Virus record (IMG/VR): IMGVR_UViG_3300033562_000305
Length of the DNA: 47,480 bases
Reading direction: 5' to 3' (one strand)
Origin: a virus
The notes below the pieces were generated by a model. It did not search any database. It was not told the origin of the DNA and was given only the letters and a program-made list of their open reading frames with translations. Numbering within the stretch: position 1 is the first letter of the stretch; each line of letters begins with the position of its first letter. This document shows positions 13,173 through 47,480 of the stretch, in pieces. A program made the translations under genes and the position numbers.

Positions 13173-15164
13173 ATGGCGGACGCAATCAGCGACATCACAA
13201 CCCTCGCCGGGGCGTTCGGCAGTTTTACGAAAAGCCTTGCCACCCTACACGAGACGAAAGTCCGCGTCGAACAGGGCTTGATTCAGGCCCAGATCGAAAA
13301 AGCCAACAACGACTTCCTCCAGCGCTTCAACCTTGCCTACGGGGACCAGAATCGACTCACAAGCGAGAACTACATGGCCGCGCTCGACGAGCATGGCAAA
13401 GCGCTCGATGAGTACCTCGGCACCGTCCGGGGCGGCAAGGCCGTTGAATCGGCGGTCAGCGCCAACCTCATGCCGGTCACTGAGGGCTTCATCACCGCCG
13501 TCGGCAACAAGATGATAACGGTCTACCGCGAAGAGACGCAGGCCAAGCGACTGGCGACTGGCGACGCCATATCGAACGGCGGCGGTACTAGGCGCGAGAT
13601 AGCCGACAAGCTCAGGGCGTGGAACTCCGAGAATGTTTCCATGGGGTACTTCGATCCAGAGAAACAGGCCGAAATCGACAAGTCGGTACGGGTTCAGGTT
13701 GCCATGGCAGACGCCGATGACCTCATAACTACTTACAAGACCCCTGCTTTCGCCGCTGACCATATCCCCGAAGGTCTCGATAAGCTCGAAATGACAGCCA
13801 TGACCAAGTACATAAAAGACAGACAGGATGGCATTGACGCGCAGTTCGGCTCGCAGTTCGATGCCAGCTATGTCGAAAAAGCCAAGGCAGAGGTGCTGGA
13901 GGAAGGCGACTCCGCCGAATGGGCAGAAGCTACCCGCGAAGCATACAAGGCTGGCAGGATATCGAAAGCAGAATACGACAAGACTATTTCAAAGATAGTG
14001 ATATACGGCAGGAAAGCGATGGGATCAGACATAGTGTCATTTGGCAACAGCATGTTCGATGTCCTTGGGGCTGGCCCGTGGAGCAGGGCTGATGCCAATA
14101 ATGCCATCGCAGAACTAATGAGGCGATTTGGAAAGGTATCCTCCGGTTCGACAGAGTTACAGACCAAGCTAAAAGAAACCATCTCAAGATTCAACGCCGC
14201 CGCCCCGTCAGAGGAGGGCGATAGGACCGAAGAGAGAAACAGGATAATGAGCGAGTTCTACCTCAGACAGGACGCCACAAGCTCTTCCTCGTCAGGCTAT
14301 ACCGAGGCCGGACTCCTGAGCTACCTCAACGCTCAGGTTAGGGCGCGCCCCGAGCTTGGCCTTGCGTCATGGGCCGATACCGAACGTACCAAGTTGCACG
14401 AGAAACTGGGAATAACTTCCGGGCCGCTTGATTCGAGCGAGCAATTACAATGGGCTCGTGGCGCAATCGTTGATCCTGCCGTGGTCCTTGGACCTAAAAA
14501 AGACATAGACGCCTACTTCGATGGTAAAAGCAAGCAGGATAGGCTTGTTCAGGCCAAGATGGATGCAATCATGTTCGACACCGAAACGGCATACTATATG
14601 TGGCTGAACAAGAAGCCGTCGGCTTCTCAGAGCGAAAAAAGGACCATGTTCCAAGAACTGTTCAAGACTGCGGCAACAGCTTACCAGTTTGCTGTCGAAC
14701 CAATAAAGAAAAACTTGTGGGGTACCCAGAGTAGTAATGCCTTGTTTCAGGGCATGGTGGACAAGGGTGTGTTTGCTCAGTTCAATACTGAAAATCTCTT
14801 TGGAAACTCCGAGACCGCAACCTCTCTCGCGGCGGCAATCCAGTCGAACCAAAACGAATACAGCAGGATGTTCGATGAAGCCAAGAGTAGCGGATATATC
14901 GACAAAAACGTGAAACTTGTGCCGAAGGTATTTAGCGGGGACACATATATTTTCAGCGACGATGGCAGGTTCGTGTACGACCAGACGACGGAGGGTACAC
15001 AGCTTGTCATAAAGTGGGCCAGAGCAGACAGGATCGTAGGTTCACTCACCAAGGCCGTCCTTGATTCATTGGTGTGGGAGAAAGTGCAAACCAAGGCGGC
15101 ATCGAGTGAAGCCCCTGGCAGGGTCGACGTACAAGAGCCTTATGAAACAGGAATTAAGAAATGA
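13173..15164 (+). CDS. Internal virion or ejection protein (candidate)
   Basis: 663 aa. Its start abuts the upstream stop, and its own stop overlaps the next start (ATGA). Confidence 0.5.
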   Translation: MADAISDITTLAGAFGSFTKSLATLHETKVRVEQGLIQAQIEKANNDFLQRFNLAYGDQNRLTSENYMAALDEHGKALDEYLGTVRGGKAVESAVSANLMPVTEGFITAVGNKMITVYREETQAKRLATGDAISNGGGTRREIADKLRAWNSENVSMGYFDPEKQAEIDKSVRVQVAMADADDLITTYKTPAFAADHIPEGLDKLEMTAMTKYIKDRQDGIDAQFGSQFDASYVEKAKAEVLEEGDSAEWAEATREAYKAGRISKAEYDKTISKIVIYGRKAMGSDIVSFGNSMFDVLGAGPWSRADANNAIAELMRRFGKVSSGSTELQTKLKETISRFNAAAPSEEGDRTEERNRIMSEFYLRQDATSSSSSGYTEAGLLSYLNAQVRARPELGLASWADTERTKLHEKLGITSGPLDSSEQLQWARGAIVDPAVVLGPKKDIDAYFDGKSKQDRLVQAKMDAIMFDTETAYYMWLNKKPSASQSEKRTMFQELFKTAATAYQFAVEPIKKNLWGTQSSNALFQGMVDKGVFAQFNTENLFGNSETATSLAAAIQSNQNEYSRMFDEAKSSGYIDKNVKLVPKVFSGDTYIFSDDGRFVYDQTTEGTQLVIKWARADRIVGSLTKAVLDSLVWEKVQTKAASSEAPGRVDVQEPYETGIKK

Positions 15165-18100
15165 GCGACTTATTCGACGCCCTGAATACCGCAAGGCAGA
15201 CGGAGACGCAGTTTTCTCCGATTGCTGACGATGGGAGAATGGACATAGGCGGAGTCAAGATTGACCTGAAATCCGCTGAACACATAATCGTTTCAGCTCT
15301 TGAGGACGAGGAAGAGCGCAACTTCAAGGCCCGTATAGCCGAGAGTGCAGAGCTTGATCCGGCCATCGACGTGTCGCAGGCGTATGCCCGGTGGGACACC
15401 GCCAAAGCGTACGCGAAGATGTATAACGTGCCTCGCTCGGAGGCGTTCGCCAACCTTGAGCGGTACGACTCTGACTTCTTTGGCCGCACGCCAGACTATA
15501 AAACCGCTCCAAAAGCGATCCTCGACGCCGGTCTCGCGCAGGTCGAGTCAATGAAGATCGGCAAGCTCTACACCGAGCTTATGCTGGCAGAGGGGTTGAA
15601 CGGTCTCATTCCGGGAGAAGGCCAAGTATTCTCCGGCCCCACCGCCGAACGTGCCGCCGAGATAGAAGCGGAAATAGAAGCCATCAAAGAGAAGATGTCC
15701 GGGTACTCAAGCGACATCATCCCACGCGGAGCCCTCGTCTCGCTCGCCAAAAAGATATCATCTGCTACCCCGTACACGGTCAGCATCCTTGGAACCACGG
15801 CGGCGGCAGGCGCGGCTGTCACGGCGGCTGGGGCTACGTTTGGGCTCAGTTCTGGCCTCGCTATGGCGACGATAAAGTCATCCATCGTATCCCTTGTCGG
15901 CTTCACGGCTGGTTTCCGCATAATGGTCGGCCTTGAGTACGGAGAGATGATCGACCGTGGCATCGACCCGAAGGAAGCCGCCAAGTGGGCCACCCTGTCT
16001 GGAGCCGGACAGGCGGCTATCGAGCAGTTCCTCGGTATCGAAGGCGCCATCTCTGGCAAGATGTCGAAAGGCGTCATCGGGCGAGTTACCGAGCGGTTCA
16101 TCGAGAAGCTCCATGTATCGGGAGCCCTGACGACAGCGGCGAAGATATACGGAGCCCGCGTCGCGTTCAGCGCCATCGGCGAGGCTGGAGAAGAGGGCGG
16201 AGGAGCCTTGCTGTCCGGCATAGCCACACTCATGGCTCAATCGGCGACCGAAGAAGGGCTCGTCATCGATCCTATCAGGGCGAGTACCATAGCCAAGAAC
16301 ATCGCCACCTCGATGATAGAAGCGGCTATCACCGCTCCGTTCCTCGGTCTTGCTCCAGATATCTTGATGACGATTTCCGATACCAAGAAGCTGTCGAAAC
16401 TTGCAGGCATGGCCCCTGTCCTCCCGAAGGAAGAGTTTATCGACTATGGCATGGAGTCTGGCGCACTCGACGGCGTAGAACTCCCCGATGATAAGAAGCG
16501 GGCGGCTCTTGGAACGCTGTACGACCACCAGACCAAGACCGCCGAGGAGCAGGCGCTCGCCGGGGCCGAGGCCACGCGCAAGGCGGCGACCGAGGGCGCG
16601 AAGCCCGAGTCTGTAGTCCGCCGCGATGACGGCACCCTGCGCGTCGATGCCGAGGATTCCGGTATCACATCGGACGGCACCCAGTCGGTGACGTTCACGG
16701 CAGGCGCGGCTCGCGGCAAGGGCGACGTGTACGGTTCCATGTCCGCCAAGGTCACGGAAGATACCGTCACCCTCACCGACAGCGACATCGATGCCGAGCA
16801 TCTTCCCCTCGCCGGTGAAGTCATCGGGCAGATAGCCGCACGGTACCCCGGACGGCAGATACTCATTGGCGAAAAGGCCGACGAGGGCATAAAGGCCGCG
16901 TATGAGCAGTTCGTCAGGGAGCGCACCGACAATCCGTTTGTCGAGTCCGATACGCGCGATCCCGAAGTTGCGACCCTCCTTGAACAGCACCGCTCCAAGC
17001 TCCTTGCCGATGGCGTTGATCGCAAGGCCGTGAGCGTAGCGGTGGCCATGTTTGACATCATGTCGCAGGCCGGAGCCAACCGGACAGGGAAGAGCCAAGC
17101 CGAGTTCCTCCGCTCATTCGATGTAGCCGGAAACTACGTCGATGGGACTTTCCCCCCAGATACGAAGGTCGGCGGGTACCTGAGCAAGTATAAATTGGCA
17201 AGCCTCGATGCCTCGTCAACCAAGTTCGCCAAAGCCATCATAGCCATATTCTCGAAGTCGGACCCTGTGTATCAGGTAGAGACCGCCTCTCACGAGCCGG
17301 TTCACCTGTTCCGCTCATGGATGAGCGACAACGCCCGCGACGGCATCTTCTCGGAGTTCGAGAAGGAGTACGGCGTTGTCGACGGAAAATGGACAGAAGA
17401 GGCCGACGAGCTGTTCGTCGAGGATTGGACCCGCTGGCTTAGGGAAAAGCAGGCCGTTACGGGAGCGAAGAGTACAATCTTCGAGCGCCTGTCCCGCCTC
17501 CTCCGCGCCCTATACACGTCGATGACCGGGTATGCTCCGCTCCCTCCCAAGCTCCGCGCCGAGTTCGACTCGCTCATGGAGGGCGTATCGGTCGAAGTGG
17601 CCAAGAAAGGCTGGAACACCGACGAGCGGGCGAGCGCTCCGTACATCACGCGAGGCGAGCGCGGTGAGCATCCGGTAACGCAGAAGTATCGTGAAGCGGA
17701 GAAGGCCCGCTACGACGTTTCCCAGAAGATCATTGCCGATGCCGCCAAGGCCCAAGGCGAGGCTGACTTCAAGGCCACCGAGGAAGCCCTCAAAGAAGCC
17801 GCCGCCCAGTACAAGGACGACTTGCAGGTCGAGCTTGAAGCCGCGGTCCAGCCGCCAGCGTCCGTCCTCACCGCCCCCTTGACCGAGGACGGGGAACACT
17901 TCGCCGAGACGCCCGAGGCTGAAAAGACCACGAGCGCCCTCAACAAAGAGCGGTTCGAGACGGTCGAGTACGATCTAGCGAGGATAGAACACGATCCCGA
18001 GCTTAAAAACTTCAAGAGGATGGCGAACAAAAAAACCGGCGTCGTTATCCCCATCCACAGCGACAAATACGAGCGCATGGGTACCGCCCCCATCGTGATA

Positions 18101-21100
18101 TGGGAGCGGCTCGACGGGCGCACGGTCATAGTGACTGGACGGCACCGGCTCGACCTCGCCAAGCGCCTCGGGGAACAGACCATACCGTCTCAGATAGTCA
18201 CGGAGGCCGAGGGCTTCACGCTGGCTATGGCAAAGGCGTTCGACGCCGAGTCGAACATCCGCGACGAACAGGGGAGCGTAGAAGATTATGTCACATACTT
18301 CAGATTCTCAGGCATCTCGGAATCAGACGCAAGAGCTAAGGGACTACTGGGCCGCACCAAAGGATCAGCAGGGTTCGCTATCGCAAATTATGCGTCGGAA
18401 GGGCTTTACTCACTCTACATGGCCGGTGACATCACCGAAACAAGAGCCGCAGTCATAGCCACTGTGGGGCGCGGCAAGCCGTGGCTCCAAGCCGAAGGCA
18501 TCAAGGTAGCTAAAAACAAGAATATGTCCATCGACTCGCTGGCTTCGTATCTGGAAGTCGCAGGGATGGAAACATCCGGCGGCATGGGCGACGTGGATGG
18601 CGGCTTTGGTGAGGATGACTGGTTCAAGAACGACGCCGATGCGATAGCCCAGCAGAAGCGGTGGCTGTCCATGGGCGAGGCTGTCGCAAACCGTATGGCT
18701 GAACTGAGGAACGAAGAACGCCTGCTCAATGCTGGCATAAAAAGCGGAGGAGCCTCTGCCAAGGAATATCTTGAGAAGTACGGCAGTCGCTCCGGCGATA
18801 TCGAGAGCATGAAGAAGCGGTACGAGGAACTGTACTTCGAGCTGAAGGGCTGGGAGTCCGGTTGGACACAGAACCCCTACCGCGTGAACGAGGCAAAGAA
18901 GCTCGCAGGATTAAAGTACGACGAGACCCTTGTCGAGCCCGACTTGCGTGTGCGGGACCGCGACAAGGAAGAGCGCGGCCAAGAGATGCTCTTCAACATC
19001 TCTGAGCGCTCCGCCATCGAGGCTCGGCAGGCGCAGATCGAGGATGGCACATGGGTCGCCAACCCCCAACTCGTCGCCGAGATCAAGGTGAGTAAGGGCA
19101 TCGAGCTGTCGCAGTACGAGAGCGACCTCCTCTCGGTGGCAGAGCAGTATTCCGAGAGCAACGGGAAACCCGACCTCCTCTTCAATATCTCCGGCGACAA
19201 TACTGGCGAGAAGCGGGCATACGCCGACCAGTTTGCCGAGGCCCGCAACTACGCGAGCTTCGAGTCATGGCTCGACGCCATGTTCGCCTCGAAAGAAGCC
19301 CTGACCGAGAACGACCGCGAATGGCTCCGCGCCCGGTACGAGAACGCCCAGTCAACGCTCAACAAGCCGCGCAAGTACGCAAAGTCAGGCGACTTTGCCA
19401 AGGCCATGTCCACCCGAGGCGGTGTCGCCAGCTTCGTGTCCCAGCTTGAGCGCGCCATCTACGGTCGCGGCAGGTACGAGAGCGACGTGACCAAGGCGCG
19501 GGCGAAGAAGATCGAGTCAGCCATCAGCCGCACGCCGGAACTCAAGCGCCTCGTTGGCGAACTGCACACTGAAGGCAAGGTTCCGTCGCCCCAGTCGGCC
19601 CGCCAGCTTCTCCGCGATATGAAGGAGTACGAGGCGCTCTACAAGTACCTGTACGCCGTCCTCCAGACGGACGAGGTTCTGGCTCACGAGGCGCTCGACG
19701 ACATGAAGGAAGTCCCCGAGCTTATCAAGCGGGAACTGACCGGCAACGCCGCGCGCACCATAGCGGAACAGCAGTACATCATTGATGCCCTGCGCTTCGA
19801 TCAGAAGTACGACAGGATCGCGTCGGGAGAGGCGACCCTTTCCGACATCGACGCCTTCATCGAGGACGTTAAGGCGTTCAAGGACGAGGAGATGGAGGAG
19901 TTCGCCGACAGCGCCAAGGCCGAGGCCAAGCTCGCCATGGACCGGCAAAAGGATAAGGAGCGAGCGCGCGACGCCCTCCGCAAGCTCCGCTCCGAGATGG
20001 CTCGCCTGCGGAAGTTCATCTTCACTGAGCCGTCGGCCCGGATCGACCTCGAACAAGCCTCGGTCATCCGGTACATACAACAGTACCTCCGGGCCGGTAA
20101 ACCCGTAGACCCCAAGAGCCTCCGCATGGCCGGTTCGTACATTTTCACGTCGATGCCAGGCCTCGCCGAGGTCATAGCCCAGAGCGTCGATAGCGTGAGC
20201 GGCAAGGACTTTTCACAGTGGAGCATGGACGAGGTGCGCAGTATTGCCTCCATCATGGCAGACCTCGCCGACCTCGGGCGCGAAGCCCTGCGAGGAAAGG
20301 AGCTTGAGTTCGGGTACAACGCCAAGAGCAAGCGCGGCCTCATAAACAGCGCCATGCGGAACAGCAAGTACCACCTTCCTCCCGTGATGAAGGATAGCGA
20401 AGAGGACATCGAGCGCCGCGGAAAGAACCGCCTGCGCAAGGCTCTGTTCGATGCCGACCGCCCCGACGCATGGATCAAGAAGTACCTCGGCAAGGACGCC
20501 TACGACCTCCTCTTCTCGAACACCGTCGATGCCCACAGGCTCAAGTACGAGAACTATGACCGCAGGATCAATCCGGTCGTGGACTACATCGACAAGCACG
20601 ACATGGTAAAAAGCGGCTCTATGTTCCGCAAGATTTTCGCCAGAGGTATCGGGCCGGAAGGGACCGACGCCACCATCACGGGCGCAGAACTGCTGGGCAT
20701 CAGGCTCCTGTACGGTGACTACCATGGGGGGAACGACTACAACACGGAACAGCGCGAGGCGTTCATCTACGGCAACCTCTTCTCGGCGGACGAGAAGAAC
20801 GTGGACGGCAACCTGACGCAGGAACGAGAACTGGCCACGAACCAGAAGATGCGCGACGCCTACAAGGAGAAGTGTGAAAAGGTTGAAGCCCTCCTCAAGG
20901 CCAACCTGAGCGCCGAAGAGGAAGAGCTTGCCCGGCTCATGGTCGGCGTGTCAGACAACGATCAGGACTGGGGCCGCTTCGCCAAGGCCATCTATATGCT
21001 CACAAACAAGGAGCCGTCGAAGAACCGATTCTACTTCCCCATTTTCCGCTCGGGCGTGTTCGGGAAGGGCGAGGACGACATCATCGACTCCCTCGCCGCC

Positions 21101-22417
21101 AGCGGCATGACGGTGGCGCTCGATCAGGGCATGGCAATCTCCCGCGTCGCAATACAGCCGCGCAACCAGCGCCCCGTGCAGATCAACGCGATGAAGGTAT
21201 TCTTCTCGGCGGTCGAAAAGCAGGAACACCTTATCAATGTCGGACTTCACGCCAAGCTCCTCCATGGCGTCTTTATGAACCAGACCATGGGCGATGCGGT
21301 CCTCCCGAACATCGACCAGTCGCTCGGCAAGGAAGCCGTCGATTACATAAAGAACCAGATCGACACGATCACCAATCCGTCCCACTGGAGCGAGAAGGCG
21401 TCAGGCGGCAAGCTCCTCGGGGCGGCCCGCGGCTCCATCGTCATATCGAACCTCGCCTTCCGCTGGTCGAGCGTCGTCATGCAGGGGCTCACGAGCCAGC
21501 TTCCGTTCCTGTCGGAAGTGAGTGCGGCCCAGCTCCTCGCCGTCTCGACCGAGGCGATGACAGACATGCCCGAGTTCACCAAGCGCATGGAAGCCGAGTC
21601 GGCGATCCTGCGGCACCGGCAGATGACCGCCGAGGTCGCCTACCTCGAACAGCGGATCGAACAGGGCGTCGCCTCGAAGCTGGAAAAACTCTCGCAGATC
21701 GGCATGAAGCCCTTGACGTGGATTGACCGCTACTCGGTCGCCATCGGATGGGAAGCCGTGCGCCGGGCCGAGCTCGACGAGTTCCTGTCAAAAGGTGTCG
21801 AAGAGAACGATGCGAAACTTGCCGCGTCAGCCTATGCCGATGAAGTCATCATCAAGACCCAGCCGACCTCGGAAGAAGTGTACCGATCCCCGATGTACCG
21901 GAACATGAACGAGTATAAACAGCTCGTCCTCCAATTCACCCAGCCGTTGAACGTGATATGGAACAACCTGCGCAACGACATTCCTGATGCCGTGCGCGAA
22001 CATGAGTTCCGCAAGTACATGGGCTTCATCGCCGCCTACGCCCTCTCGGGGATCGCCGTATCAGCCATCGCCGTCGCGCGTGGGCGCGGGCCGGACGATC
22101 CCGACGAAGAGAAGTGGCTCCGCTACTTTCTGCACGCGACCACGACGCAGTTCACCGACTCCATCCCCCTCGTCGGCGGCATTGCCACGTTGTTGACCCG
22201 CAAGGCCATAGTGGGTGATACTGGGTACCTGAACGATATGAACATGCCAGCGGCTTCCGGCATTGCACGGGCAGGGGTGATGATGCTTGGCCAAGACCCC
22301 GACTACGGCAAGGTCGCCAAGACCCTTGGCACCTCGATCGGCCTGTTCGTCGGAGCCCCGGTCAAGGGCGCGCTGGACGTGTGGGAGCTGGGCAAGGCGA
22401 TAGCTGGCGAGGAGTAG
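15161..22417 (+). CDS. Giant (2418 aa) virion-delivered polyvalent-type protein with HExxH metallopeptidase-like and ParB-like motifs
   Basis: HEPVH at nt 17291-17305. ParB/Srx-like IVTGRHRLDLAKRLG within about nt 18032-18280. Hydrophobic segments at aa ~200-400 and ~2285-2410, plus long coiled coils. The position matches podovirus ejection proteins. Confidence 0.7.
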   Translation: MSDLFDALNTARQTETQFSPIADDGRMDIGGVKIDLKSAEHIIVSALEDEEERNFKARIAESAELDPAIDVSQAYARWDTAKAYAKMYNVPRSEAFANLERYDSDFFGRTPDYKTAPKAILDAGLAQVESMKIGKLYTELMLAEGLNGLIPGEGQVFSGPTAERAAEIEAEIEAIKEKMSGYSSDIIPRGALVSLAKKISSATPYTVSILGTTAAAGAAVTAAGATFGLSSGLAMATIKSSIVSLVGFTAGFRIMVGLEYGEMIDRGIDPKEAAKWATLSGAGQAAIEQFLGIEGAISGKMSKGVIGRVTERFIEKLHVSGALTTAAKIYGARVAFSAIGEAGEEGGGALLSGIATLMAQSATEEGLVIDPIRASTIAKNIATSMIEAAITAPFLGLAPDILMTISDTKKLSKLAGMAPVLPKEEFIDYGMESGALDGVELPDDKKRAALGTLYDHQTKTAEEQALAGAEATRKAATEGAKPESVVRRDDGTLRVDAEDSGITSDGTQSVTFTAGAARGKGDVYGSMSAKVTEDTVTLTDSDIDAEHLPLAGEVIGQIAARYPGRQILIGEKADEGIKAAYEQFVRERTDNPFVESDTRDPEVATLLEQHRSKLLADGVDRKAVSVAVAMFDIMSQAGANRTGKSQAEFLRSFDVAGNYVDGTFPPDTKVGGYLSKYKLASLDASSTKFAKAIIAIFSKSDPVYQVETASHEPVHLFRSWMSDNARDGIFSEFEKEYGVVDGKWTEEADELFVEDWTRWLREKQAVTGAKSTIFERLSRLLRALYTSMTGYAPLPPKLRAEFDSLMEGVSVEVAKKGWNTDERASAPYITRGERGEHPVTQKYREAEKARYDVSQKIIADAAKAQGEADFKATEEALKEAAAQYKDDLQVELEAAVQPPASVLTAPLTEDGEHFAETPEAEKTTSALNKERFETVEYDLARIEHDPELKNFKRMANKKTGVVIPIHSDKYERMGTAPIVIWERLDGRTVIVTGRHRLDLAKRLGEQTIPSQIVTEAEGFTLAMAKAFDAESNIRDEQGSVEDYVTYFRFSGISESDARAKGLLGRTKGSAGFAIANYASEGLYSLYMAGDITETRAAVIATVGRGKPWLQAEGIKVAKNKNMSIDSLASYLEVAGMETSGGMGDVDGGFGEDDWFKNDADAIAQQKRWLSMGEAVANRMAELRNEERLLNAGIKSGGASAKEYLEKYGSRSGDIESMKKRYEELYFELKGWESGWTQNPYRVNEAKKLAGLKYDETLVEPDLRVRDRDKEERGQEMLFNISERSAIEARQAQIEDGTWVANPQLVAEIKVSKGIELSQYESDLLSVAEQYSESNGKPDLLFNISGDNTGEKRAYADQFAEARNYASFESWLDAMFASKEALTENDREWLRARYENAQSTLNKPRKYAKSGDFAKAMSTRGGVASFVSQLERAIYGRGRYESDVTKARAKKIESAISRTPELKRLVGELHTEGKVPSPQSARQLLRDMKEYEALYKYLYAVLQTDEVLAHEALDDMKEVPELIKRELTGNAARTIAEQQYIIDALRFDQKYDRIASGEATLSDIDAFIEDVKAFKDEEMEEFADSAKAEAKLAMDRQKDKERARDALRKLRSEMARLRKFIFTEPSARIDLEQASVIRYIQQYLRAGKPVDPKSLRMAGSYIFTSMPGLAEVIAQSVDSVSGKDFSQWSMDEVRSIASIMADLADLGREALRGKELEFGYNAKSKRGLINSAMRNSKYHLPPVMKDSEEDIERRGKNRLRKALFDADRPDAWIKKYLGKDAYDLLFSNTVDAHRLKYENYDRRINPVVDYIDKHDMVKSGSMFRKIFARGIGPEGTDATITGAELLGIRLLYGDYHGGNDYNTEQREAFIYGNLFSADEKNVDGNLTQERELATNQKMRDAYKEKCEKVEALLKANLSAEEEELARLMVGVSDNDQDWGRFAKAIYMLTNKEPSKNRFYFPIFRSGVFGKGEDDIIDSLAASGMTVALDQGMAISRVAIQPRNQRPVQINAMKVFFSAVEKQEHLINVGLHAKLLHGVFMNQTMGDAVLPNIDQSLGKEAVDYIKNQIDTITNPSHWSEKASGGKLLGAARGSIVISNLAFRWSSVVMQGLTSQLPFLSEVSAAQLLAVSTEAMTDMPEFTKRMEAESAILRHRQMTAEVAYLEQRIEQGVASKLEKLSQIGMKPLTWIDRYSVAIGWEAVRRAELDEFLSKGVEENDAKLAASAYADEVIIKTQPTSEEVYRSPMYRNMNEYKQLVLQFTQPLNVIWNNLRNDIPDAVREHEFRKYMGFIAAYALSGIAVSAIAVARGRGPDDPDEEKWLRYFLHATTTQFTDSIPLVGGIATLLTRKAIVGDTGYLNDMNMPAASGIARAGVMMLGQDPDYGKVAKTLGTSIGLFVGAPVKGALDVWELGKAIAGEE

Positions 22418-24932: not shown

Positions 24933-27900
24933 ATGGCATACGCTGTAGTTGACAACAGTCCGGGCCTCGGGTACATCTCATGGACAGGTGTGTCGATCAC
25001 CTACATGGGCGTAAAGTATGCAATCACGAACGGTCAGTCATGCTACAGGTATGTGTTCTGGAAGCTGGCAAGCCCGACGGTATTTCAGACCAGCGATGCC
25101 GCACCAGTCCTTTCTGAGACCGACTGTATAGTATTCATCAACAACGGCGGCATTGCCTTCTCTGTCCTTGATTCTGACGTGATGCACGGTGATGTTCTCG
25201 TCGATGGTTCCATTGGCGCGCGTGCAATCGCGGCTGGAGCGATCAGGGCCGACCACATCGCGGCTGGAGCGATCACCGCTGACCATATCGGCGTCGGAAC
25301 CATCGACGCCAAGCACATGAAGATTGATTCCATCGAGGCTGACTTCATTCAGGCTGGGGCCATCGTAGCTGGCAAGGTGGCCGCTGGAGCCATCGGTGCC
25401 GACGAGATAGCCGCTGGCGCCATCGTCGTTGGGAAGCTCGGTGCCGGGGCCGTCGAGCGGGTAACGATAGCCAACGGAGCCATCGGCGCTGACCAGATAG
25501 AAGTCAACTCAATTACCGCAGGACAGATCGCGGTCGGTGCCATCGGGGCCGACCAGATAGCGTCCGATGCCGTAACTGCCGGTAAAATCCTTGCAGGCTC
25601 CATCCTCGCCAGCAAGATCTCGGTCATCGCCGCAGACCTCGTGAACAATGTCACGCTAAACGGAAAACTCAACGGATGGGGATTGGTTGCCGAGGACGGT
25701 ACCGGAACGCCGGTCTATTCGACGTATGACGCCACCGAGAAGGCTATCAAGGTAACTACGACGCTGAACGCCTCTGTCCGTAGCATCGGATTCAAGGTTG
25801 ACCACAGCAAGATTTACCGTGTCTCATGCCGGATCAAGAAAAGCGCGGCCAATGGCAATACCTATATCGGGTTGACAGGATCACCGGCCGCTATAGCCGG
25901 AACTGACGACACAAGTAGCGGTTCTGGTAGCGAGCTTATATCCTCAATCAACCAGACGACAAGGGTGGTTTCAGCAGGAGTAGCGAACTTCTACAATAAA
26001 GGCCCGACAGCTGGTACTACTTCGTATGTCGAAAGCATATTCTTTATTGTGGGTGCGCGCCGTTCAGAGCTTGAGTTCCCAGAAGGCGCTACAACCGCCT
26101 GCGCAAAGCTCGCCGAGACCACGAATTACCTCGCGCTCCGCTTCCTGAACTGGGATAACACAGTCTCGACCTCGATGTATGTCCGCGACATATCGGTCAC
26201 GGAAGTCGGCGCTGGCATCATCGTGGCCGAGAACATAAAAGCCGGGGCGATCATTGCAGGGAAGCTTGGCGTCGAAGCTGTCGATGCTGGGAATATCAAG
26301 GCCGGGGCAATCACAACGGGACAGCTTGCGACTGGTGTCATAACCTCACTGACCAATGCCGACAGTGCCGCGAATGGTACGGCTTTGTACCGGAATACAG
26401 ACCCGCCAGACGGAGAACTGACGATAGGAAATGTGACCGCCGTCAATAACAATGACGGGTCGCGGAATGTCTCGATACAGTACACCTTCTCGGCGGCTGG
26501 GACGCTACCTTCCGACTTCATCGTCCTCCTTGTCAACTTCTCCTCGACAGACCCGTCGCTCGACGTTGCCGACCTCCGCCTGACCCTGCCGCTTCCCGCC
26601 GTGAACCCAACGGCACGCACCTACGTCCTCGATGGTGTTCCTGCCGACAAGGCGATCAAGGCCGCAGTAGCGCTGGCGAGGAATACAAGTGGTGGCGTCA
26701 AGTTCAAAGCCCCGGTACAGGCTACCGTTCTCGCCGCTGGAACCGTCTCGATCACCGCAGGAGGCACGTTCTCTGGTACTGCCAGCGGGACAGTAACCGG
26801 CGACGTGACCGGAAAGGTCAACAACGTACCAGTTGCGACCGTGACAAGCGGAGCGGCCAATGGACAGCTTGCTTTTTCTGGAACGGTGAACGTTCGGAGC
26901 AACACTGCTCCATCCAACAACGCTGTACTCGGTACTTGTAGCCTTGCCGCTGTAACCGACGGCTCTGTCATAGGGACGGTAGCCTATACCTATGCTCAGG
27001 GGACTATCCCTGCTGACGGCATCCTTGTGTACTTCCGCGAGGGTGGCGGAACAGTTCTGACCTCAGACCCGTGCGTTATGGTGAACCCTATCTCTGGCAC
27101 CATGAAGTTCTCGCTGAAACCCGGAGTCATTTACAGTTTTGGCGTGCAGGCTATCCGGTCGAGCGACGGTGGGTATCAGGCTTTTGCGACCATTGCGCAG
27201 AGTACCAACCAAGCGGCTGTCGCCGGAAACATTACGGTGGCAATAGGCGGAACCGCCCTGATAAACAGTGTTGCGGCATCTACCGTAACTGGTAACGCCG
27301 CCAATGGAGCCGCCGTCAACACTTGGCTCGACACAACCGCCCCGGTTGGTAGCTTCTCTGGCCATAATACAGTAGCCCTTACCCAGAACGCCGATGGCTC
27401 GGTCAACCTCGACCTCTCGTGGGCCTTTGCCCAGTCAGGGAAAGTAGCAGACCGTCTCCTCGTTGCAATCAAGAAGGGAACCGTAGCAAGCCTCCCCGGA
27501 CAGGTACTACTGACTGACATTACGTCCGGCCTCGTTGACGTATACGAGTATCCAATCGGGGCTACTGCCGCCAAGATTATGGGCCTTCCGATAGCCACAA
27601 TGGTGGCAGGAGTCTCGACCAAGGTCGTCTATTCTGCTGGTATCGCCTGCGCCAAGCCGACCATCGGCGGAACAACAGCCATTTCTGCGGTAAGTTGTCC
27701 TGACCCGGCATGGCGAAACAAGACCGTCACCGAAGTGAAGATGGGCGCAAACGCCGATAACTTCTGGGACTTGACTACCGGAGAACTCAAGGCCACCATT
27801 GGCACAGACAAGACATTCCATCTCGATCCTGTTTCTGGTGATGCAGAGCTTACGAATGTTCCCATTCGCTCATACCAAGGTACGGGGGCACAAAGACGTG

Positions 27901-29276
27901 CGACACAACTCGATAATGATTCTCTGGATTTCATTGATTGCCCTGATACTTCACCTGCTACTGATGAGCTGCTCGTCGCCCGTATCGGACGGCTTGGGGT
28001 AGGTGGAGCCGTCCTCATGGATGGCGATATTAACGTACCGATAGAAGACGGCTGGGGTTCTGGAACGCTCATATCAAGTGGAACTTCGAGATTTCCAAGC
28101 ACCATTGAGATGTCAAACAGGACAAGGCGACTTGGATATGGATTGTCTGGAACTGGATATGTTGAAAGACTAGATACTGGTTCTGGCTTCGGAAGCGCCA
28201 CAACGATACATGCGGCGACTTCACAAGTCCTTGAAAGCGATTATATAGAAAGGACGAACGGAGAAGTACGTTTTTGTTTTATGGTTTTTCAGTCAATAAA
28301 TAACTATTACATATATGAAAAACTTCTTGTCAATGGTGTGTGGGAAACAACTCCGCGAGGTGTTGTTACTGACTTATATGTATGGTCGTGCGCCTATGGT
28401 GAGCTGAGCGATGGTACGTTAATAATGGGCTATCAGCGATCGGCAGATGGTCACTATTTTATCAGGCAATATAACGATGATACTGACACTTGGGGCGCTG
28501 GCGTTGAGATCACGAGCTTCGCGGTCAACTTCCCTGACTTGTTTAAAGATAAAGATGGGGTGTTTCATTTAGCTTATTCAGTGAATACCACTTATTATCT
28601 TTATGAAATACTTTCTTCCGACAACTGTACAACATGGTCGGCTACTCCATTGTTGATTAAGAGCGGTGCTGTCACAAGATATGGAAAGTTCGCTGATACA
28701 TTTAATGGCGACATAAAAGTTATCTATCAAGATCAACCGACAACAGAGATACGATTCAAGGAAAAAATAGATGGAGTGTGGGGGGCGGAGCAATCTACTG
28801 ACCTATTGGGGTTTGATCCATCATTCACTCTTTTTAACGATGGGTCATATTGTATATTTTTTACTGGGTCTGCATATTCTGGCGTTTATCAGGCGTTCAA
28901 ACTAGCTTATGCCCAGATCGGCGCGGGGATCATTGAGTCTGGCGGCAACGATACCAACGGGCGGTACATCAAGTACGGCGATGGGACGATGGTGCAATGG
29001 GGAAGGAAAAATCTATCAGCACCAAGCCTTTTTTCCGCTAGTGGTACGTATACATTTTACGAAGGCCCTACTTATACGGTGACGCTACAACAAAGTTTTT
29101 TCGATACAAAATATTGCGTAGTTGCAAACGCATTTCTTAATGGTAACGCAGCGGCAGGAACAATATCTATCAGTGCGGAAGTGATAAATAATATTAGCTT
29201 CGGTGGACGCACTAATTCAGCATATAATTACACGCCAACGATGACGTGGCAAGCAATCGGAAGGTGGAAAGCATGA
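24933..29276 (+). CDS. Main tail fibre or spike (1447 aa), mosaic
   Basis: AGAI.AD.IAAGAI shaft repeats at aa ~95-235 and ~430-470. Asp-box-like SSDNCTTW at 28614-28637. C-terminal knob motif NGRYIKYGDGTMVQWG...AIGRWKA. The 3' third has low GC. Confidence 0.85.
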   Translation: MAYAVVDNSPGLGYISWTGVSITYMGVKYAITNGQSCYRYVFWKLASPTVFQTSDAAPVLSETDCIVFINNGGIAFSVLDSDVMHGDVLVDGSIGARAIAAGAIRADHIAAGAITADHIGVGTIDAKHMKIDSIEADFIQAGAIVAGKVAAGAIGADEIAAGAIVVGKLGAGAVERVTIANGAIGADQIEVNSITAGQIAVGAIGADQIASDAVTAGKILAGSILASKISVIAADLVNNVTLNGKLNGWGLVAEDGTGTPVYSTYDATEKAIKVTTTLNASVRSIGFKVDHSKIYRVSCRIKKSAANGNTYIGLTGSPAAIAGTDDTSSGSGSELISSINQTTRVVSAGVANFYNKGPTAGTTSYVESIFFIVGARRSELEFPEGATTACAKLAETTNYLALRFLNWDNTVSTSMYVRDISVTEVGAGIIVAENIKAGAIIAGKLGVEAVDAGNIKAGAITTGQLATGVITSLTNADSAANGTALYRNTDPPDGELTIGNVTAVNNNDGSRNVSIQYTFSAAGTLPSDFIVLLVNFSSTDPSLDVADLRLTLPLPAVNPTARTYVLDGVPADKAIKAAVALARNTSGGVKFKAPVQATVLAAGTVSITAGGTFSGTASGTVTGDVTGKVNNVPVATVTSGAANGQLAFSGTVNVRSNTAPSNNAVLGTCSLAAVTDGSVIGTVAYTYAQGTIPADGILVYFREGGGTVLTSDPCVMVNPISGTMKFSLKPGVIYSFGVQAIRSSDGGYQAFATIAQSTNQAAVAGNITVAIGGTALINSVAASTVTGNAANGAAVNTWLDTTAPVGSFSGHNTVALTQNADGSVNLDLSWAFAQSGKVADRLLVAIKKGTVASLPGQVLLTDITSGLVDVYEYPIGATAAKIMGLPIATMVAGVSTKVVYSAGIACAKPTIGGTTAISAVSCPDPAWRNKTVTEVKMGANADNFWDLTTGELKATIGTDKTFHLDPVSGDAELTNVPIRSYQGTGAQRRATQLDNDSLDFIDCPDTSPATDELLVARIGRLGVGGAVLMDGDINVPIEDGWGSGTLISSGTSRFPSTIEMSNRTRRLGYGLSGTGYVERLDTGSGFGSATTIHAATSQVLESDYIERTNGEVRFCFMVFQSINNYYIYEKLLVNGVWETTPRGVVTDLYVWSCAYGELSDGTLIMGYQRSADGHYFIRQYNDDTDTWGAGVEITSFAVNFPDLFKDKDGVFHLAYSVNTTYYLYEILSSDNCTTWSATPLLIKSGAVTRYGKFADTFNGDIKVIYQDQPTTEIRFKEKIDGVWGAEQSTDLLGFDPSFTLFNDGSYCIFFTGSAYSGVYQAFKLAYAQIGAGIIESGGNDTNGRYIKYGDGTMVQWGRKNLSAPSLFSASGTYTFYEGPTYTVTLQQSFFDTKYCVVANAFLNGNAAAGTISISAEVINNISFGGRTNSAYNYTPTMTWQAIGRWKA
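25380..25519 (+). repeat. Left copy of the diverged inverted repeat (fibre shaft codons 150-196)
   Basis: The reverse complement of 33271-33462 aligns here. The longest perfect block is 29 nt (aagctcggtgccggggccgtcgagcgggt). Confidence 0.9.
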
Positions 29277-31728: not shown

Positions 31729-32673
31729 TCAAAGGCTGAACGCCACCACAAGCATGACCGGGGCTATAACGTCGATGAACACAGCCGGGAAGGCGGCGAG
31801 AGCGAACTCCATCTGGTCCGCCGACAATCCAAAGCGCTCGCCGAGCCATGCGGCGAAGTCCTTCCGCTCTACTATACCTCTTGATTTGACCACTTGTTCA
31901 GCAAGTCCAAGTAGGTCTCCTTCGAGTTCCGATAGCCGCTGTTCGCCTTGCTTGACCCGAGCCTGCGCCGCGTTCCTGTTGGCGACGAGGGTCGCCACAA
32001 CCCGTCCTGTCGAGCTTTCTCCAGCCTCAAGAGCTTTATCGATCTGGAGCTGATACGAACTGACTGCGCCCTGATCTGTGGCCATGCTCGTAGAGAGCCG
32101 CTGGATCGACGCTTTGATGATATCAGCCTTGGCCTGTGCGGCCATATTATCGTCGTCCACGGATCGGGAGTCCGAAGCGGCGTCTCGATCCATCGAAGCT
32201 GTTCTTGCATTGTAAATACCCCCTATCGTCGAACTCATGGAAAACGTCATGGCTACGAGTGATATGGCTATCACCGAGGCGGCTGACACATACTGCTTTT
32301 TCCTCGCCAGCATAGTCGCCATCTCGGGCGAAGTCGTGAGCGTGGCTACGACCGTGATGCTCATAATCGCGGCCATGGCCGGTGGCTGGCTGGCGAGGAA
32401 CCAGATGTTCGAGAAGTAGACGCTCGCCACAGCGCACGAGGCCGACGTGAAGAGGGCCACGATCCGCAGGATCATCGACCGGATATCAAAAGGTTGCTTT
32501 TTGGGCTCTGTCGGCTTCTGCTCAGGAGCCTTCCTTCGCTCGGCGGCGTCCATTGCGGCGCGCATTGCCGCCCGCACGTCACGCTCCCCGACCGGCTCAC
32601 CAAGAACCGTCCGGGCCATGCCTTCTGCCGCCGAGCGCTGGCGGCGCACGGTGTCCATCCATGAATTAGCCAT
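31729..32673 (-). CDS. Multi-pass membrane protein with a long coiled coil (DUF4407-like topology)
   Basis: The start MANSWMD at 32673 overlaps the upstream gene's end. Three TM segments, then about 130 aa of coiled coil, then a C-terminal TM. Confidence 0.6.
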   Translation of the reverse strand: MANSWMDTVRRQRSAAEGMARTVLGEPVGERDVRAAMRAAMDAAERRKAPEQKPTEPKKQPFDIRSMILRIVALFTSASCAVASVYFSNIWFLASQPPAMAAIMSITVVATLTTSPEMATMLARKKQYVSAASVIAISLVAMTFSMSSTIGGIYNARTASMDRDAASDSRSVDDDNMAAQAKADIIKASIQRLSTSMATDQGAVSSYQLQIDKALEAGESSTGRVVATLVANRNAAQARVKQGEQRLSELEGDLLGLAEQVVKSRGIVERKDFAAWLGERFGLSADQMEFALAAFPAVFIDVIAPVMLVVAFSL

Positions 32674-32851
32674 TGCCCATCTTCTTCTCGGTGGCGAGTA
32701 TCCACGACACGAGCTGGTCGAGGCTCCCGTTATTGAGAGCATCCTTCGGGTACATCTTGTTGGTGGCGCACACCTTCATAATGCTCTTCACTTCCGGGTT
32801 CTGTATCGCGGCAATCTTCTTGTTGATATTCGCAAGGTAGTCGTCGCTCAT
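32666..32851 (-). CDS. Hypothetical small protein
   Basis: 61 aa with an ATGA overlap with the nuclease gene stop. Confidence 0.55.
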   Translation of the reverse strand: MSDDYLANINKKIAAIQNPEVKSIMKVCATNKMYPKDALNNGSLDQLVSWILATEKKMGNG

Positions 32852-33471
32852 ACAATCGTCCTTCCTGAAATGAACGCTATCGCCTTTGCGGCCTCGCTGG
32901 CGGTCAGGCGAGGCTCGTCCAGCATAAGGTCCGACATGCGCCTGCCAGCCATCGACTTGCGTAGCACGTCACGGAGGACTCCGACGTAGAAGAGGTCGCC
33001 ATCGTACAGACAGAGCAGGATACGGAAGAACCCGGCCTCATGCACGTCGTGGTAGAACACCGGCTGACTCGACTCGAATACCGAACTTATCTTCCGGTCG
33101 CCTTCCATGTACTTCATCTCGACGAGTACCACTTCCGGCCCGATTACCACGAGGTCTGGGAATCCGTCGATATTGCAGTCGATATGGCGGACGTATAACC
33201 CTAGCTTCTCAAGCTCGTTCTGGATCATGCGCTCGCCACACTTCTCAAGGTGATTCACTGGTTTGCCTCGTTCTATCTGATCAGCGCCGATGGCTCCGAT
33301 GGCTCCGTTGGCTCCGTTGGCTCCATTAGCTCCATTAGCTATCGTCACCCGCTCGACGGCCCCGGCACCGAGCTTTCCGACGACGATAGCCCCAGCGGCT
33401 ATCTTGTCGGCAGTAATCGCACCAGCGGCGAGTTGAGCGGTAATTGAGTTGCCTTCTATCTGGCGTTCCAT
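32848..33471 (-). CDS. VRR-NUC / PD-(D/E)xK nuclease with an N-terminal tail-fibre-repeat module
   Basis: ATG at 33471 with GGAGG 7 nt upstream. Residues 4-67 copy the fibre shaft repeat. Residues ~78-160 read ERMIQNELEKLG...DGFPDLVVIG...VVLVEMKY...SQPVF, which gives the PD...ExK motif. Confidence 0.75.
   Translation of the reverse strand: MERQIEGNSITAQLAAGAITADKIAAGAIVVGKLGAGAVERVTIANGANGANGANGAIGAIGADQIERGKPVNHLEKCGERMIQNELEKLGLYVRHIDCNIDGFPDLVVIGPEVVLVEMKYMEGDRKISSVFESSQPVFYHDVHEAGFFRILLCLYDGDLFYVGVLRDVLRKSMAGRRMSDLMLDEPRLTASEAAKAIAFISGRTIV
33271..33462 (-). repeat. Right copy of the diverged inverted repeat (fibre-shaft-like codons inside the nuclease gene)
   Basis: The reverse complement aligns to 25380-25519. 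It carries a 45-nt insertion made of 9-bp repeats. Confidence 0.9.
33291..33344. repeat. 9-bp in-frame tandem repeat (6 units; encodes ANG/AIG triplets)
   Basis: tggctccga tggctccgt tggctccgt tggctccat tagctccat tagctatcg. Confidence 0.85.
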
Positions 33472-33490
33472 CTGGCGTCCCCTCCGGGGT

Positions 33491-33546: not shown

Positions 33547-34389
33547 CTAGAACAGGTCTTTGTCGTCTACTTCCGGCTTGGCCGCAGTCCGGTGGCTTCC
33601 CTCGGCAGGCTTCATGGCCTCGGGAGCCGGGGTGCTTGCGTGCGACTCGACACCCTGAATGTCGGCGGCGCTGACACCCTGAGCGTCGAGGAAAGCGCTG
33701 ACGACGAGGTTCTTGGCGGTCGGCGGGACATACCCGAGCCTATCGATCTTCGTGATCTGGTAGTACGAACCGGCGTCGTTGTCCTGATAGCCGGTCGCCA
33801 GTTCCCACACCGAGGCCCATATCGGAGCCTGCCTGCCGTCGTTCGAGCGGACGTTCTGCGCCATCGTGAGCCACTTCTTCGAGGGGGCGATGCCGGTCGA
33901 GGACAGCGACAGGAGCATCGGTCCGTCGTTGTACGCACCAGCCACCATGACAATGAAGTTGCGGGTATCGACGTATCGGAAGCCTTTGCCGTCGAGGTGG
34001 TAGCTCTTCTCGCGGGTGGCGGTCGGCATGATGTTGCGCTCGAAGTCCTCGGGGGCCATGGTCCCGACAAACTTGGCGTTCATATCCTTGCCATCGTAGA
34101 TGATGTACTGGCGGTAGAAGCGGAGGACCACGAGGCGGACAGCCTCGCCGTAGGTCTTGCGGGTGGCCGGGCAGAAGAACATACCGGGCTCCAGCCCTTT
34201 GATGTACTCCGGGCTTCCCTTCTTCGCCTGCTCGGTGGCCGTCTGCGCCACCTTGAGGAAGGGTATCGTCGTGCAGTCGCGGTCAACTCCGTCGAAACCC
34301 GACGGGCCGTCGAACTCGAACGCCTCGGCCACCGCCACTTCCTGCTTGCCTGCGAAAACGCTCGCCACCATGTCTGTTGATTCACTCAT
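33547..34389 (-). CDS. Candidate ssDNA-binding protein (gp2.5-like role) with an acidic C-terminal tail
   Basis: 280 aa ending ...KPEVDDKDLF, which resembles SSB-type C-terminal tails (DDDIPF, or the acidic tail with terminal Phe in T7 gp2.5). It lies in the replication module. The fold is not verified. Confidence 0.4.
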   Translation of the reverse strand: MSESTDMVASVFAGKQEVAVAEAFEFDGPSGFDGVDRDCTTIPFLKVAQTATEQAKKGSPEYIKGLEPGMFFCPATRKTYGEAVRLVVLRFYRQYIIYDGKDMNAKFVGTMAPEDFERNIMPTATREKSYHLDGKGFRYVDTRNFIVMVAGAYNDGPMLLSLSSTGIAPSKKWLTMAQNVRSNDGRQAPIWASVWELATGYQDNDAGSYYQITKIDRLGYVPPTAKNLVVSAFLDAQGVSAADIQGVESHASTPAPEAMKPAEGSHRTAAKPEVDDKDLF

Positions 34390-47362: not shown

Positions 47363-47480
47363 CACGGCCAGCAGGCGCACGGCCAGCAGGCGCACGGCCA
47401 GCAGGCGCACGGCCAGCAGGCGCACGGCCAGCAGGCGCACGGCCAGCAGGCGCACGGCCAGCAGGCGCACGGCCAGCAGG
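47363..47480. repeat. 15-bp tandem repeat array AGGCGCACGGCCAGC (partial unit plus 7 full copies plus agg)
   Basis: Units run from 47373 to 47477. The unit is the same as at nt 1-52. Confidence 0.95.

Follow-up and report, generated by a model that had tools for sequence, protein, structure and literature searches.

Background

A phage-encoded resolvase of the Hjc type has been described in the Thermus phage Tth15-6, whose Hjc_15-6 carries the residues E10-SD40-EVK55 (PMC8805305), and stand-alone VRR-Nuc proteins (PF08774; PDB entries 4qbo and 4qbn), which are small dimeric PD-(D/E)xK enzymes cleaving Holliday junctions, are common in phages (PMC4103454). VRR-Nuc is also found together with a PAAR-like domain in TseV1-4, which are type VI secretion system (T6SS) effectors (PMC9635880). 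Illegitimate or relaxed homologous recombination underlies the mosaicism of phage genomes (PMC2327257, PMC3945230). Here we describe a gene of 207 amino acids (aa) in the IMG/VR virus record IMGVR_UViG_3300033562_000305, a stretch of 47,480 nucleotides (nt) that we call the window, in which a predicted Hjc-like nuclease is preceded by a piece of tail-fibre shaft. With a probability of about 0.6, we consider this piece to be a young, translated and tolerated passenger that would have arrived by microhomology-mediated recombination and that appears to be neutral. The fusion gives a familiar type of enzyme a new architecture and is most likely a young chimera joined over microhomology.

Compared with the Hjc-type resolvases (comparison structures PDB 2eo0, 1hh1 and 4tkd), the window protein has the same predicted fold, the E...D...E-x-K tetrad and a core of about 135-145 aa; like Hjc_15-6 it is phage-encoded, and the nuclease stands alone in the relatives of the window gene. 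It differs from Hjc in that the Pfam Hjc model is not significant on the 207-aa protein, in a sequence identity of 12-17%, and in a fibre-derived N-terminal extension of 64 residues; we know of no Hjc with such an extension. With the stand-alone VRR-Nuc proteins it shares the GxPD...E-x-K...Q motif, but the profile match to them is limited to the first ~85 positions, only 3 of 77 relatives hit PF08774, and its domain measures ~135 aa instead of ~90 aa and, like Hjc, has additional helices at the C-terminus. TseV1-4 are the nearest precedent for a delivered nuclease, with a nuclease of the same clan and an N-terminal module from a phage-tail-like device. However, the N-terminus of TseV1-4 is a complete, conserved and folded PAAR adaptor accompanied by a cognate immunity gene, whereas the window protein has five anchorless shaft repeats, is known from one strain, and has no neighbour identified as immunity-like.

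The fibre-derived insert

The closest homologue of the nuclease is P0001, encoded on the Logan contig L001. Against this homologue and the tail-fibre-like gene of the window, the following features were delimited.

32848..33471, minus strand: chimeric gene, 207 aa, with a fibre-derived N-terminal extension and a predicted Hjc-like PD-(D/E)xK nuclease domain
33280..33462, minus strand: insertion of 183 nt (61 codons), absent from L001, its placement ambiguous by 9 nt (flanking repeat)
33454..33462, minus strand: left 9-bp direct repeat CAGATAGAA (QIE) bounding the insert
33271..33279, minus strand: right copy of CAGATAGAA; the single corresponding site in L001 is CAGATGGAA
33286..33340, minus strand: 9-bp tandem array, GCTAATGGA x2, GCCAACGGA x2 and GCCATCGGR x2, encoding ANG x4 and AIG x2
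24933..29276, plus strand: tail-fibre-like structural gene, 1447 aa, with an N-terminal tail-protein domain, a shaft and large C-terminal domains
25380..25502, plus strand: fibre codons 150-190, counterpart of insert codons 15-47 and 59-67
25494..25544, plus strand: fibre codons 188-204 (QIEVNSITAGQIAVGAI), the permuted piece, corresponding to insert codons 4-19

The DNA encoding residues 4-67 is 88% identical to the fibre shaft repeats, with mismatches at 18 of the 156 aligned bases. The insert consists of one circularly permuted shaft period of 50 codons, minus 1 codon and plus 12 codons of 9-bp expansion. The period, which comprises five 10-residue repeats, runs from AGAIGAD (codons 151-157) to VGAIGAD (codons 201-207) and is opened at QIE; since the fibre match of insert codons 4-14 is at codons 188-199 (QIEVNSITAGQI), downstream of the main fibre block, the copy is circularly permuted. 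The fibre counterpart of the 9-bp array holds only one ANG and one AIG unit. When the window was aligned to itself by BLAST, the inverted pair formed by the fibre and nuclease genes was the sole long-range repeat besides the terminal array, and it fell into three pieces: 25380-25480 against 33429-33329 (87%, 101 bp, E 1e-28), 25475-25502 against 33298-33271 (96%), and 25493-25561 against 33463-33398 (77%). The first-pass annotation had equated residues 4-67 with fibre residues ~150-196 (nt 25380-25519); the copy itself is correct, but the block ends at 25502 and the permutation had been missed.

The fibre character of this part is also seen in a match of phrog_892 (tail fiber) to aa 10-53 of the nuclease gene (E 3.9e-4), and in a comparison of the insert with fibres, in which the resident fibre scored 188 and 46 other fibres at most 131. 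The fibre shaft is made up of about 13 ten-residue repeats of the type xAGAIxADxI at aa 86-215, as found both by AlphaFold2 (AF2) and by TRF, and its monomer model shows a regular 10-residue pattern with a pLDDT (predicted local distance difference test) of about 80-85; the fibre N-terminal model gave no meaningful fold match, and the shaft no match in PDB. Neither the phrog_11032 tail-protein domain (fibre aa 1-85) nor fibre aa 240-1447 has a counterpart in the nuclease gene. In the AF2 monomer of the chimera, aa 1-69 are poorly modelled (pLDDT 44-72).

Relatives without the insert

Over the nuclease gene and the gene downstream of it (660 nt), L001 is 97.6% identical in DNA to the window and is without exactly 183 nt; P0001 reads MGRQMERDKPVNHLEK... 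The junction in L001 is ...GGAGGGAACGCCAG ATG GGA CGC CAG ATG GAA CGG GAT AAA..., and that in the window is ...GGAGGGGACGCCAG ATG GAA CGC [CAG ATA GAA GGC ... GCT GAT] CAG ATA GAA CGA GGC AAA..., the brackets enclosing the inserted sequence. The sole other copy of the fused gene was found on the Logan contig L003, whose identity to the window is 100% over 2844 nt. The distant relatives (P0002-P0004, L002 and L004-L007; 34-47% identity) have short N-termini and no extension, and the order of a gp34-like gene, the nuclease gene and a 61-aa gene is common to distant relatives, including L002. The JGI metagenomes yielded just four distant relatives (34-44% identity), all without the extension, and none of the ~110 family representatives aligned to the insert was fibre-like by score. 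Scans of IMG/VR with a protein pattern, an alignment pattern and an exact 29-mer found no relative, and neither did a search of the GTDB genomes. Related phages that keep the nuclease and lack its N-terminal segment, which the first-pass annotation had named as evidence against its view of the fusion, are therefore represented by L001, by the distant relatives and by the ~110 family representatives.

Of the 16 differences between the window and L001 in the 660-nt stretch, four crowd together within 15 nt of the indel, on its right side. Among the junction differences is CGA GGC in the window versus CGG GAT in L001, which creates GAGG 7 nt before a GTG at codon 72 (GTG72). The clustering could reflect repair at the junction, a loosening of constraint in the N-terminal tail, or compensation. 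When both sides are counted, six window/L001 differences lie within ~15 nt of the indel (33265-33279 and 33454-33485). Further upstream, in the part of the Pam3_Gp34-like gene that encodes the C-terminal tail, a patch of 58 nt (33581-33638) is 26% diverged from L001 (15/58), while its flanks are diverged by 0.8-2.5%. This patch looks like a small import from a diverged allele, that is, fine-scale mosaicism beside the nuclease gene.

Origin of the insert and the dN/dS ratio

The junctions suggest a single recombination event over a 9-bp microhomology, CAGATAGAA, at a recipient site like the CAGATGGAA of L001 (8/9), which could have run in either direction. It might have proceeded by template switching, by integration of a 150-bp circle, or by copying from a fibre allele with tandem duplication, and the 9-bp unit within the insert would later have been amplified by slippage. 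The fibre piece would in this way have come to lie in frame after codon 3, behind the strong start that was already there and in an N-terminal tail that is probably under little constraint. As in described cases of phage mosaicism, there is a novel joint at very short homology, tail-fibre sequence is involved and a diverged patch lies nearby. In contrast to the usual mosaicism, in which whole genes or modules pass between phages, a sub-genic structural repeat unit of the same genome is involved here, and the recipient is the 5' end of a non-structural gene whose frame is retained. If so, the locus would offer a datable snapshot of a phage gene gaining an N-terminal segment, with an insert-free sister sequence for comparison.

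The insert and the fibre differ over 41 codons by 11 synonymous and 2 non-synonymous codon differences, which is exactly the count given in the first-pass annotation. The formal calculation of the non-synonymous to synonymous ratio (dN/dS, omega) that it had proposed was carried out by the Nei-Gojobori method and gave dS 0.42, dN 0.034 and omega 0.08 for these codons (P about 1e-4 against omega = 1), and an omega of 0.11 when the permuted block was added (52 codons in total). The ratio between the two copies is significantly low, but it does not follow that the segment is "selectively maintained" in the nuclease gene, since the synonymous differences may predate the transfer, having arisen while both copies were fibre alleles. 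The dS between insert and fibre (0.41) is 8 times the dS between the window and L001 (0.049); thus the low ratio may stem from the fibre context and is not assignable to the nuclease copy.

Two histories may be set against each other. Probably the insert arrived around the time of the divergence from L001 or after it, its source being a fibre allele that was by then ~12% diverged, or else the resident fibre segment was replaced later; all the synonymous divergence would then have arisen under fibre constraints. Tail fibres are notoriously mosaic, the 58-nt patch in the adjacent gene indicates exchange with diverged alleles at this locus, and the two amino-acid changes (G->T and E->K) remain inside the repeat consensus; we count all three for this first history. 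The other, less probable history is that of an old insert kept by purifying selection in the nuclease gene and lost from L001 by deletion between the 9-bp repeats.

Several results weigh against a young and neutral passenger. An omega of 0.5 is expected if only the fibre copy is constrained and the nuclease copy drifts neutrally, and the observed 0.08-0.11 lies below this value (P = 0.008-0.009). Two synonymous C->T changes are common to the duplicated 9-bp units, which suggests that the array is of some age, as expected for an old insert; the frame was kept by a 3-nt deletion and by all the expansions; and a divergence that arose in situ would mean purifying selection on the peptide within the nuclease gene. 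The junction fits a gain in the window lineage as well as a loss in L001. In addition, none of the collections searched yielded a donor fibre allele nearer to the insert than the resident one, because close relatives are absent from every one of them: the 52-aa insert peptide had no match in a set of 5.8 billion proteins, and a search with the fibre N-terminus returned relatives at best 36-49% identical, with no candidate donor allele among them. When the two copies were tested for change points that would mark gene-conversion tracts, neither result reached significance (P 0.16 and 0.55). The case also carries a methodological warning: a low intragenomic dN/dS is no proof of selection in the recipient gene if the donor family swaps alleles freely, as tail fibres do.

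The nuclease domain

32851..33264, minus strand: nuclease domain, aa 70-207, AF2 pLDDT 87-98, catalytic residues aligned to Hjc

The residues E80, D106, E118 and K120 align to the catalytic E12, D42, E55 and K57 of Hjc (E / D / E-x-K, on alpha1, beta2 and beta3), and the motifs E80, GFPD106, E118-M-K120 and Q136 correspond to (nearly) invariant residues of the family. Among 77 homologues E118 is invariant and D106 and K120 are kept in at least 90%; E80 is invariant among the five closest. In Pfam, the 207-aa protein had no match to VRR_NUC (PF08774), with a sub-threshold match to NERD only, and none to the Hjc model (PF01870) at E <= 1.

An exhaustive profile search collected 112 cluster representatives, almost all of them single-domain proteins of 88-177 aa; the exceptions among these ~110 were one of 190 aa and six repeat-type matches of 382-920 aa. 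When 77 members of the family were scanned individually, Pfam returned Hjc for 17 (E <= 0.01, best 2.3e-6), VRR_NUC for 3 (best E 6.4e-4) and RecU for 2. The profile of the 77 homologues, searched against PDB, matched Hjc ST1444 (2eo0) with an E of 1.5e-7; the match to VRR-Nuc 4qbo, weaker than this Hjc match, had an E of 8.6e-6 and covered profile positions 1-84 only, and S. solfataricus Hjc followed with an E of about 3e-5. The top structural matches by Foldseek were likewise Hjc (4tkk, 4tkd and 2eo0; E 7.5e-4 to 3e-3, template modelling (TM) score on the target 0.51-0.68), followed by SPARDA DREN domains, I-Ssp6803I, VRR_NUC and RecU; the VRR-Nuc structure 4qbn gave a weaker match than Hjc, with an E of 0.02 and a TM of 0.67 over 87 columns. 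The viral Foldseek matches are anonymous single-domain phage proteins of 127-170 aa.

Judged by its sequence and its model, the C-terminal domain is a predicted Hjc-like member of the PD-(D/E)xK resolvase clan, nearest to Hjc, with VRR-NUC and RecU in the same clan, and its Hjc membership is to be read at the superfamily or distant-family level. The gene product, part of the replication/recombination module of the phage, would then be a small Holliday-junction-resolvase-like nuclease, and, by analogy with resolvases of other phages, it presumably cuts branched DNA before packaging. Of the earlier label "VRR-NUC / PD-(D/E)xK signature", the PD-(D/E)xK part holds, whereas the VRR-NUC part gives way to an assignment that is Hjc-like first and VRR-NUC-like second; the search with the VRR-NUC model that had been proposed in support of it is the one without a match on the 207-aa protein. 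The first-pass annotation had listed such a result as refuting its view; of its three refuting outcomes, this one and the relatives that lack the N-terminal segment were obtained, and a true start at Met82 was not.

Start of translation

33479..33485, minus strand: Shine-Dalgarno sequence GGAGGGG, with a 7-nt spacer to the ATG at 33469-33471; same start in L001
33491..33525, minus strand: intrinsic-terminator hairpin, GC stem of 9-11 bp followed by TTTTT, between the Pam3_Gp34-like and nuclease genes
33454..33478, minus strand: 12-bp tandem ACGCCAGATGGA/ACGCCAGATAGA (as a duplication, ACGCCAGATGGR x2) spanning the start codon, present in L001 too
33256..33269, minus strand: candidate secondary start at codon 72 (GTG), preceded at 7 nt by GAGG, -5.9 kcal/mol

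As stated in the first-pass annotation, the open reading frame (ORF) at 32848-33471 has its own ATG with a Shine-Dalgarno sequence 7 nt upstream and lies just after a terminator. At this ATG (ATG1), the pairing energy with the anti-Shine-Dalgarno sequence, -10.0 kcal/mol, ranks with the strongest of the window. Since ATG1 is strong and is common to L001, the fibre-derived N-terminus is very probably translated from it. The terminator hairpin (fold z = -3.5) lies ~20 nt ahead of the ATG, and the space between it and the Shine-Dalgarno sequence of the nuclease gene is too short for a promoter and has no promoter-like site; therefore the nuclease gene, the 61-aa gene and a gene for a 337-aa protein would depend on read-through, and the nuclease gene is probably expressed in this way. 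The hairpin also scores as a terminator on the plus strand, that is, as a bidirectional one.

The 12-bp tandem over the start codon, which gives L001 two in-frame ATGs 12 nt apart, may be the scar of an insertion or excision, or of an older slippage event. Met82 (MIQNELEK), considered as the true start, was rejected: its Shine-Dalgarno sequence is poor (-3.5 kcal/mol), and a start there would cut off the conserved E76, K77 and E80.

Alternative explanations

The passenger reading has to be weighed against the possibility that the fibre-derived N-terminus is an old, selectively kept module, which oligomerises the nuclease or tethers it to the fibre or virion, L001 having arisen by a deletion between the CAGATAGAA repeats. 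The omega discussed above differs from the one-neutral-copy model at P < 0.01, the frame survives a 3-nt deletion and a 36-nt expansion, and a one-step deletion between the 9-bp direct repeats yields the L001 sequence bar one substitution; nucleases fused to a spike-associated delivery domain have a precedent in the PAAR-like + VRR-Nuc T6SS effectors (PMC9635880). We nevertheless regard such a module as unlikely, since divergence in the fibre context accounts for the low omega just as well, and since the extension is carried by one known strain only (the window and L003 being identical) and is missing from the closest relative and from ~110 family clusters. Moreover, it brings five shaft repeats without the anchor (fibre aa 1-85) or the C-terminal domain, is modelled at pLDDT 44-72, and belongs to a gene that lies in the replication module behind a terminator, outside the structural operon. 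Hjc/VRR-Nuc enzymes work as dimers (PMC4103454), a poor match for a trimeric fibre module. For the same reasons, namely the dimeric enzyme family and an insert without anchor and C-terminal domains, the docking onto the fibre or virion that had been suggested earlier finds no support. In its boldest form, an exapted and selectively kept shaft segment would let the resolvase-like nuclease assemble together with the tail fibre, or into higher oligomers, and travel on or in the virion, L001 being a recent deletion derivative; this is very improbable. If it were true, the nuclease would act on the DNA of the host or of competitors at infection, like the PAAR-VRR-Nuc T6SS effectors, and phages would have a new route of nuclease delivery; the low dN/dS is the sole result that speaks for it. 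It is also rather doubtful that the insert is simply bypassed, a nuclease of native length being made from GTG72 (MNHLEKCGER...) while the long form is minor or useless. Substitutions beside the insert have made the GAGG 7 nt ahead of this codon (-5.9 kcal/mol against -4.4 kcal/mol for the equivalent GGGAT in L001), four of the 16 differences from L001 fall within 15 nt to the right of the indel, and a start there leaves 3-4 residues ahead of the conserved EK..E, as in P0004. The gain in pairing energy is small, however, ribosomes starting at ATG1 read through the site, and ATG1 is by far the stronger start and is shared with L001.

Repeats can cause misjoins, and the window comes from a metagenome assembly, so an assembler might have joined a fibre-like stretch into the nuclease gene. 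This is hardly credible: the junctions are clean 9-bp ones and in frame, and the insert, with 18 of 156 aligned bases differing from the fibre copy and a 9-bp expansion of its own, does not derive from fibre reads; the 12% divergence, together with the full identity of the independent contig L003 over 2844 nt, rules out a misassembly. The two copies also form inverted repeats 7.8 kb apart that bracket the receptor-binding part of the fibre, and BPP-1-like podoviruses carry diversity-generating retroelements (DGRs), which brings to mind programmed diversification, either by a template/variable repeat pair or by an invertible fibre segment between inverted copies. The chance of this is negligible, and both forms were rejected, because adenine is not singled out among the mismatches (A at 4 of the 18 sites in either copy) and no reverse transcriptase or invertase was matched in Pfam among the 36 ORF products scanned. 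In an inversion, furthermore, the fibre would lose its anchor and become joined to a nuclease, and there are no alternative fibre C-termini.

Genome context

1-51 and 47363-47480, both window ends: perfect 15-bp tandem array AGGCGCACGGCCAGC
33547..34389, minus strand: Pam3_Gp34-like gene (PF23977), conserved neighbour upstream of the nuclease in relatives
32666..32851, minus strand: 61-aa gene, its ATG overlapping the nuclease stop (ATGA), conserved neighbour downstream

At ~47.4 kb, the window represents a complete podovirus-like genome that was assembled as a circle. Its ends overlap each other, so the genome is circularly closed or terminally redundant, and as the junction falls within the AGGCGCACGGCCAGC tandem repeat, the copy number of this repeat is uncertain. 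A plus-strand module encodes a T7-type portal, a capsid protein of the epsilon15 GP7 type and a terminase, and the replication module on the minus strand encodes an SNF2 helicase, a D5-type primase-helicase, and Pam3 gp33- and gp34-like proteins. The genome is without a close relative among sequenced phages: the portal is ~30% identical to its best matches among known podoviruses, and neither the locus (blastn) nor the nuclease protein (tblastn) had a match in the Phage GenBank collection. For the neighbours of the nuclease gene, the gp34-like protein had no match in a PDB sequence search, the literature on Pam3 gp34 gave nothing informative, and NCBIfam returned no match for the nuclease or its neighbours.

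The 337-aa product (31729-32742, minus strand) contains hydrophobic segments, its C-terminal half resembles a coiled coil, and no family was assigned to it; the position of its gene after the nuclease and 61-aa genes is kept in relatives, the equivalent in L002 being a 287-aa protein. In the structural module, an ORF of 2418 aa (15161-22417) has zero Pfam matches, and the terminase-like ORF, unusually long at 860 aa (1475-4057), shows a weak match to the C-terminal nuclease domain only. A sibling contig of 47,455 nt in the JGI data carries a near-identical genome, whose fibre (P0161) is identical to that of the window (24933-29276) at 1445 of 1447 positions; the two exceptions, P1269S and D1290G, fall in its distal C-terminal region.

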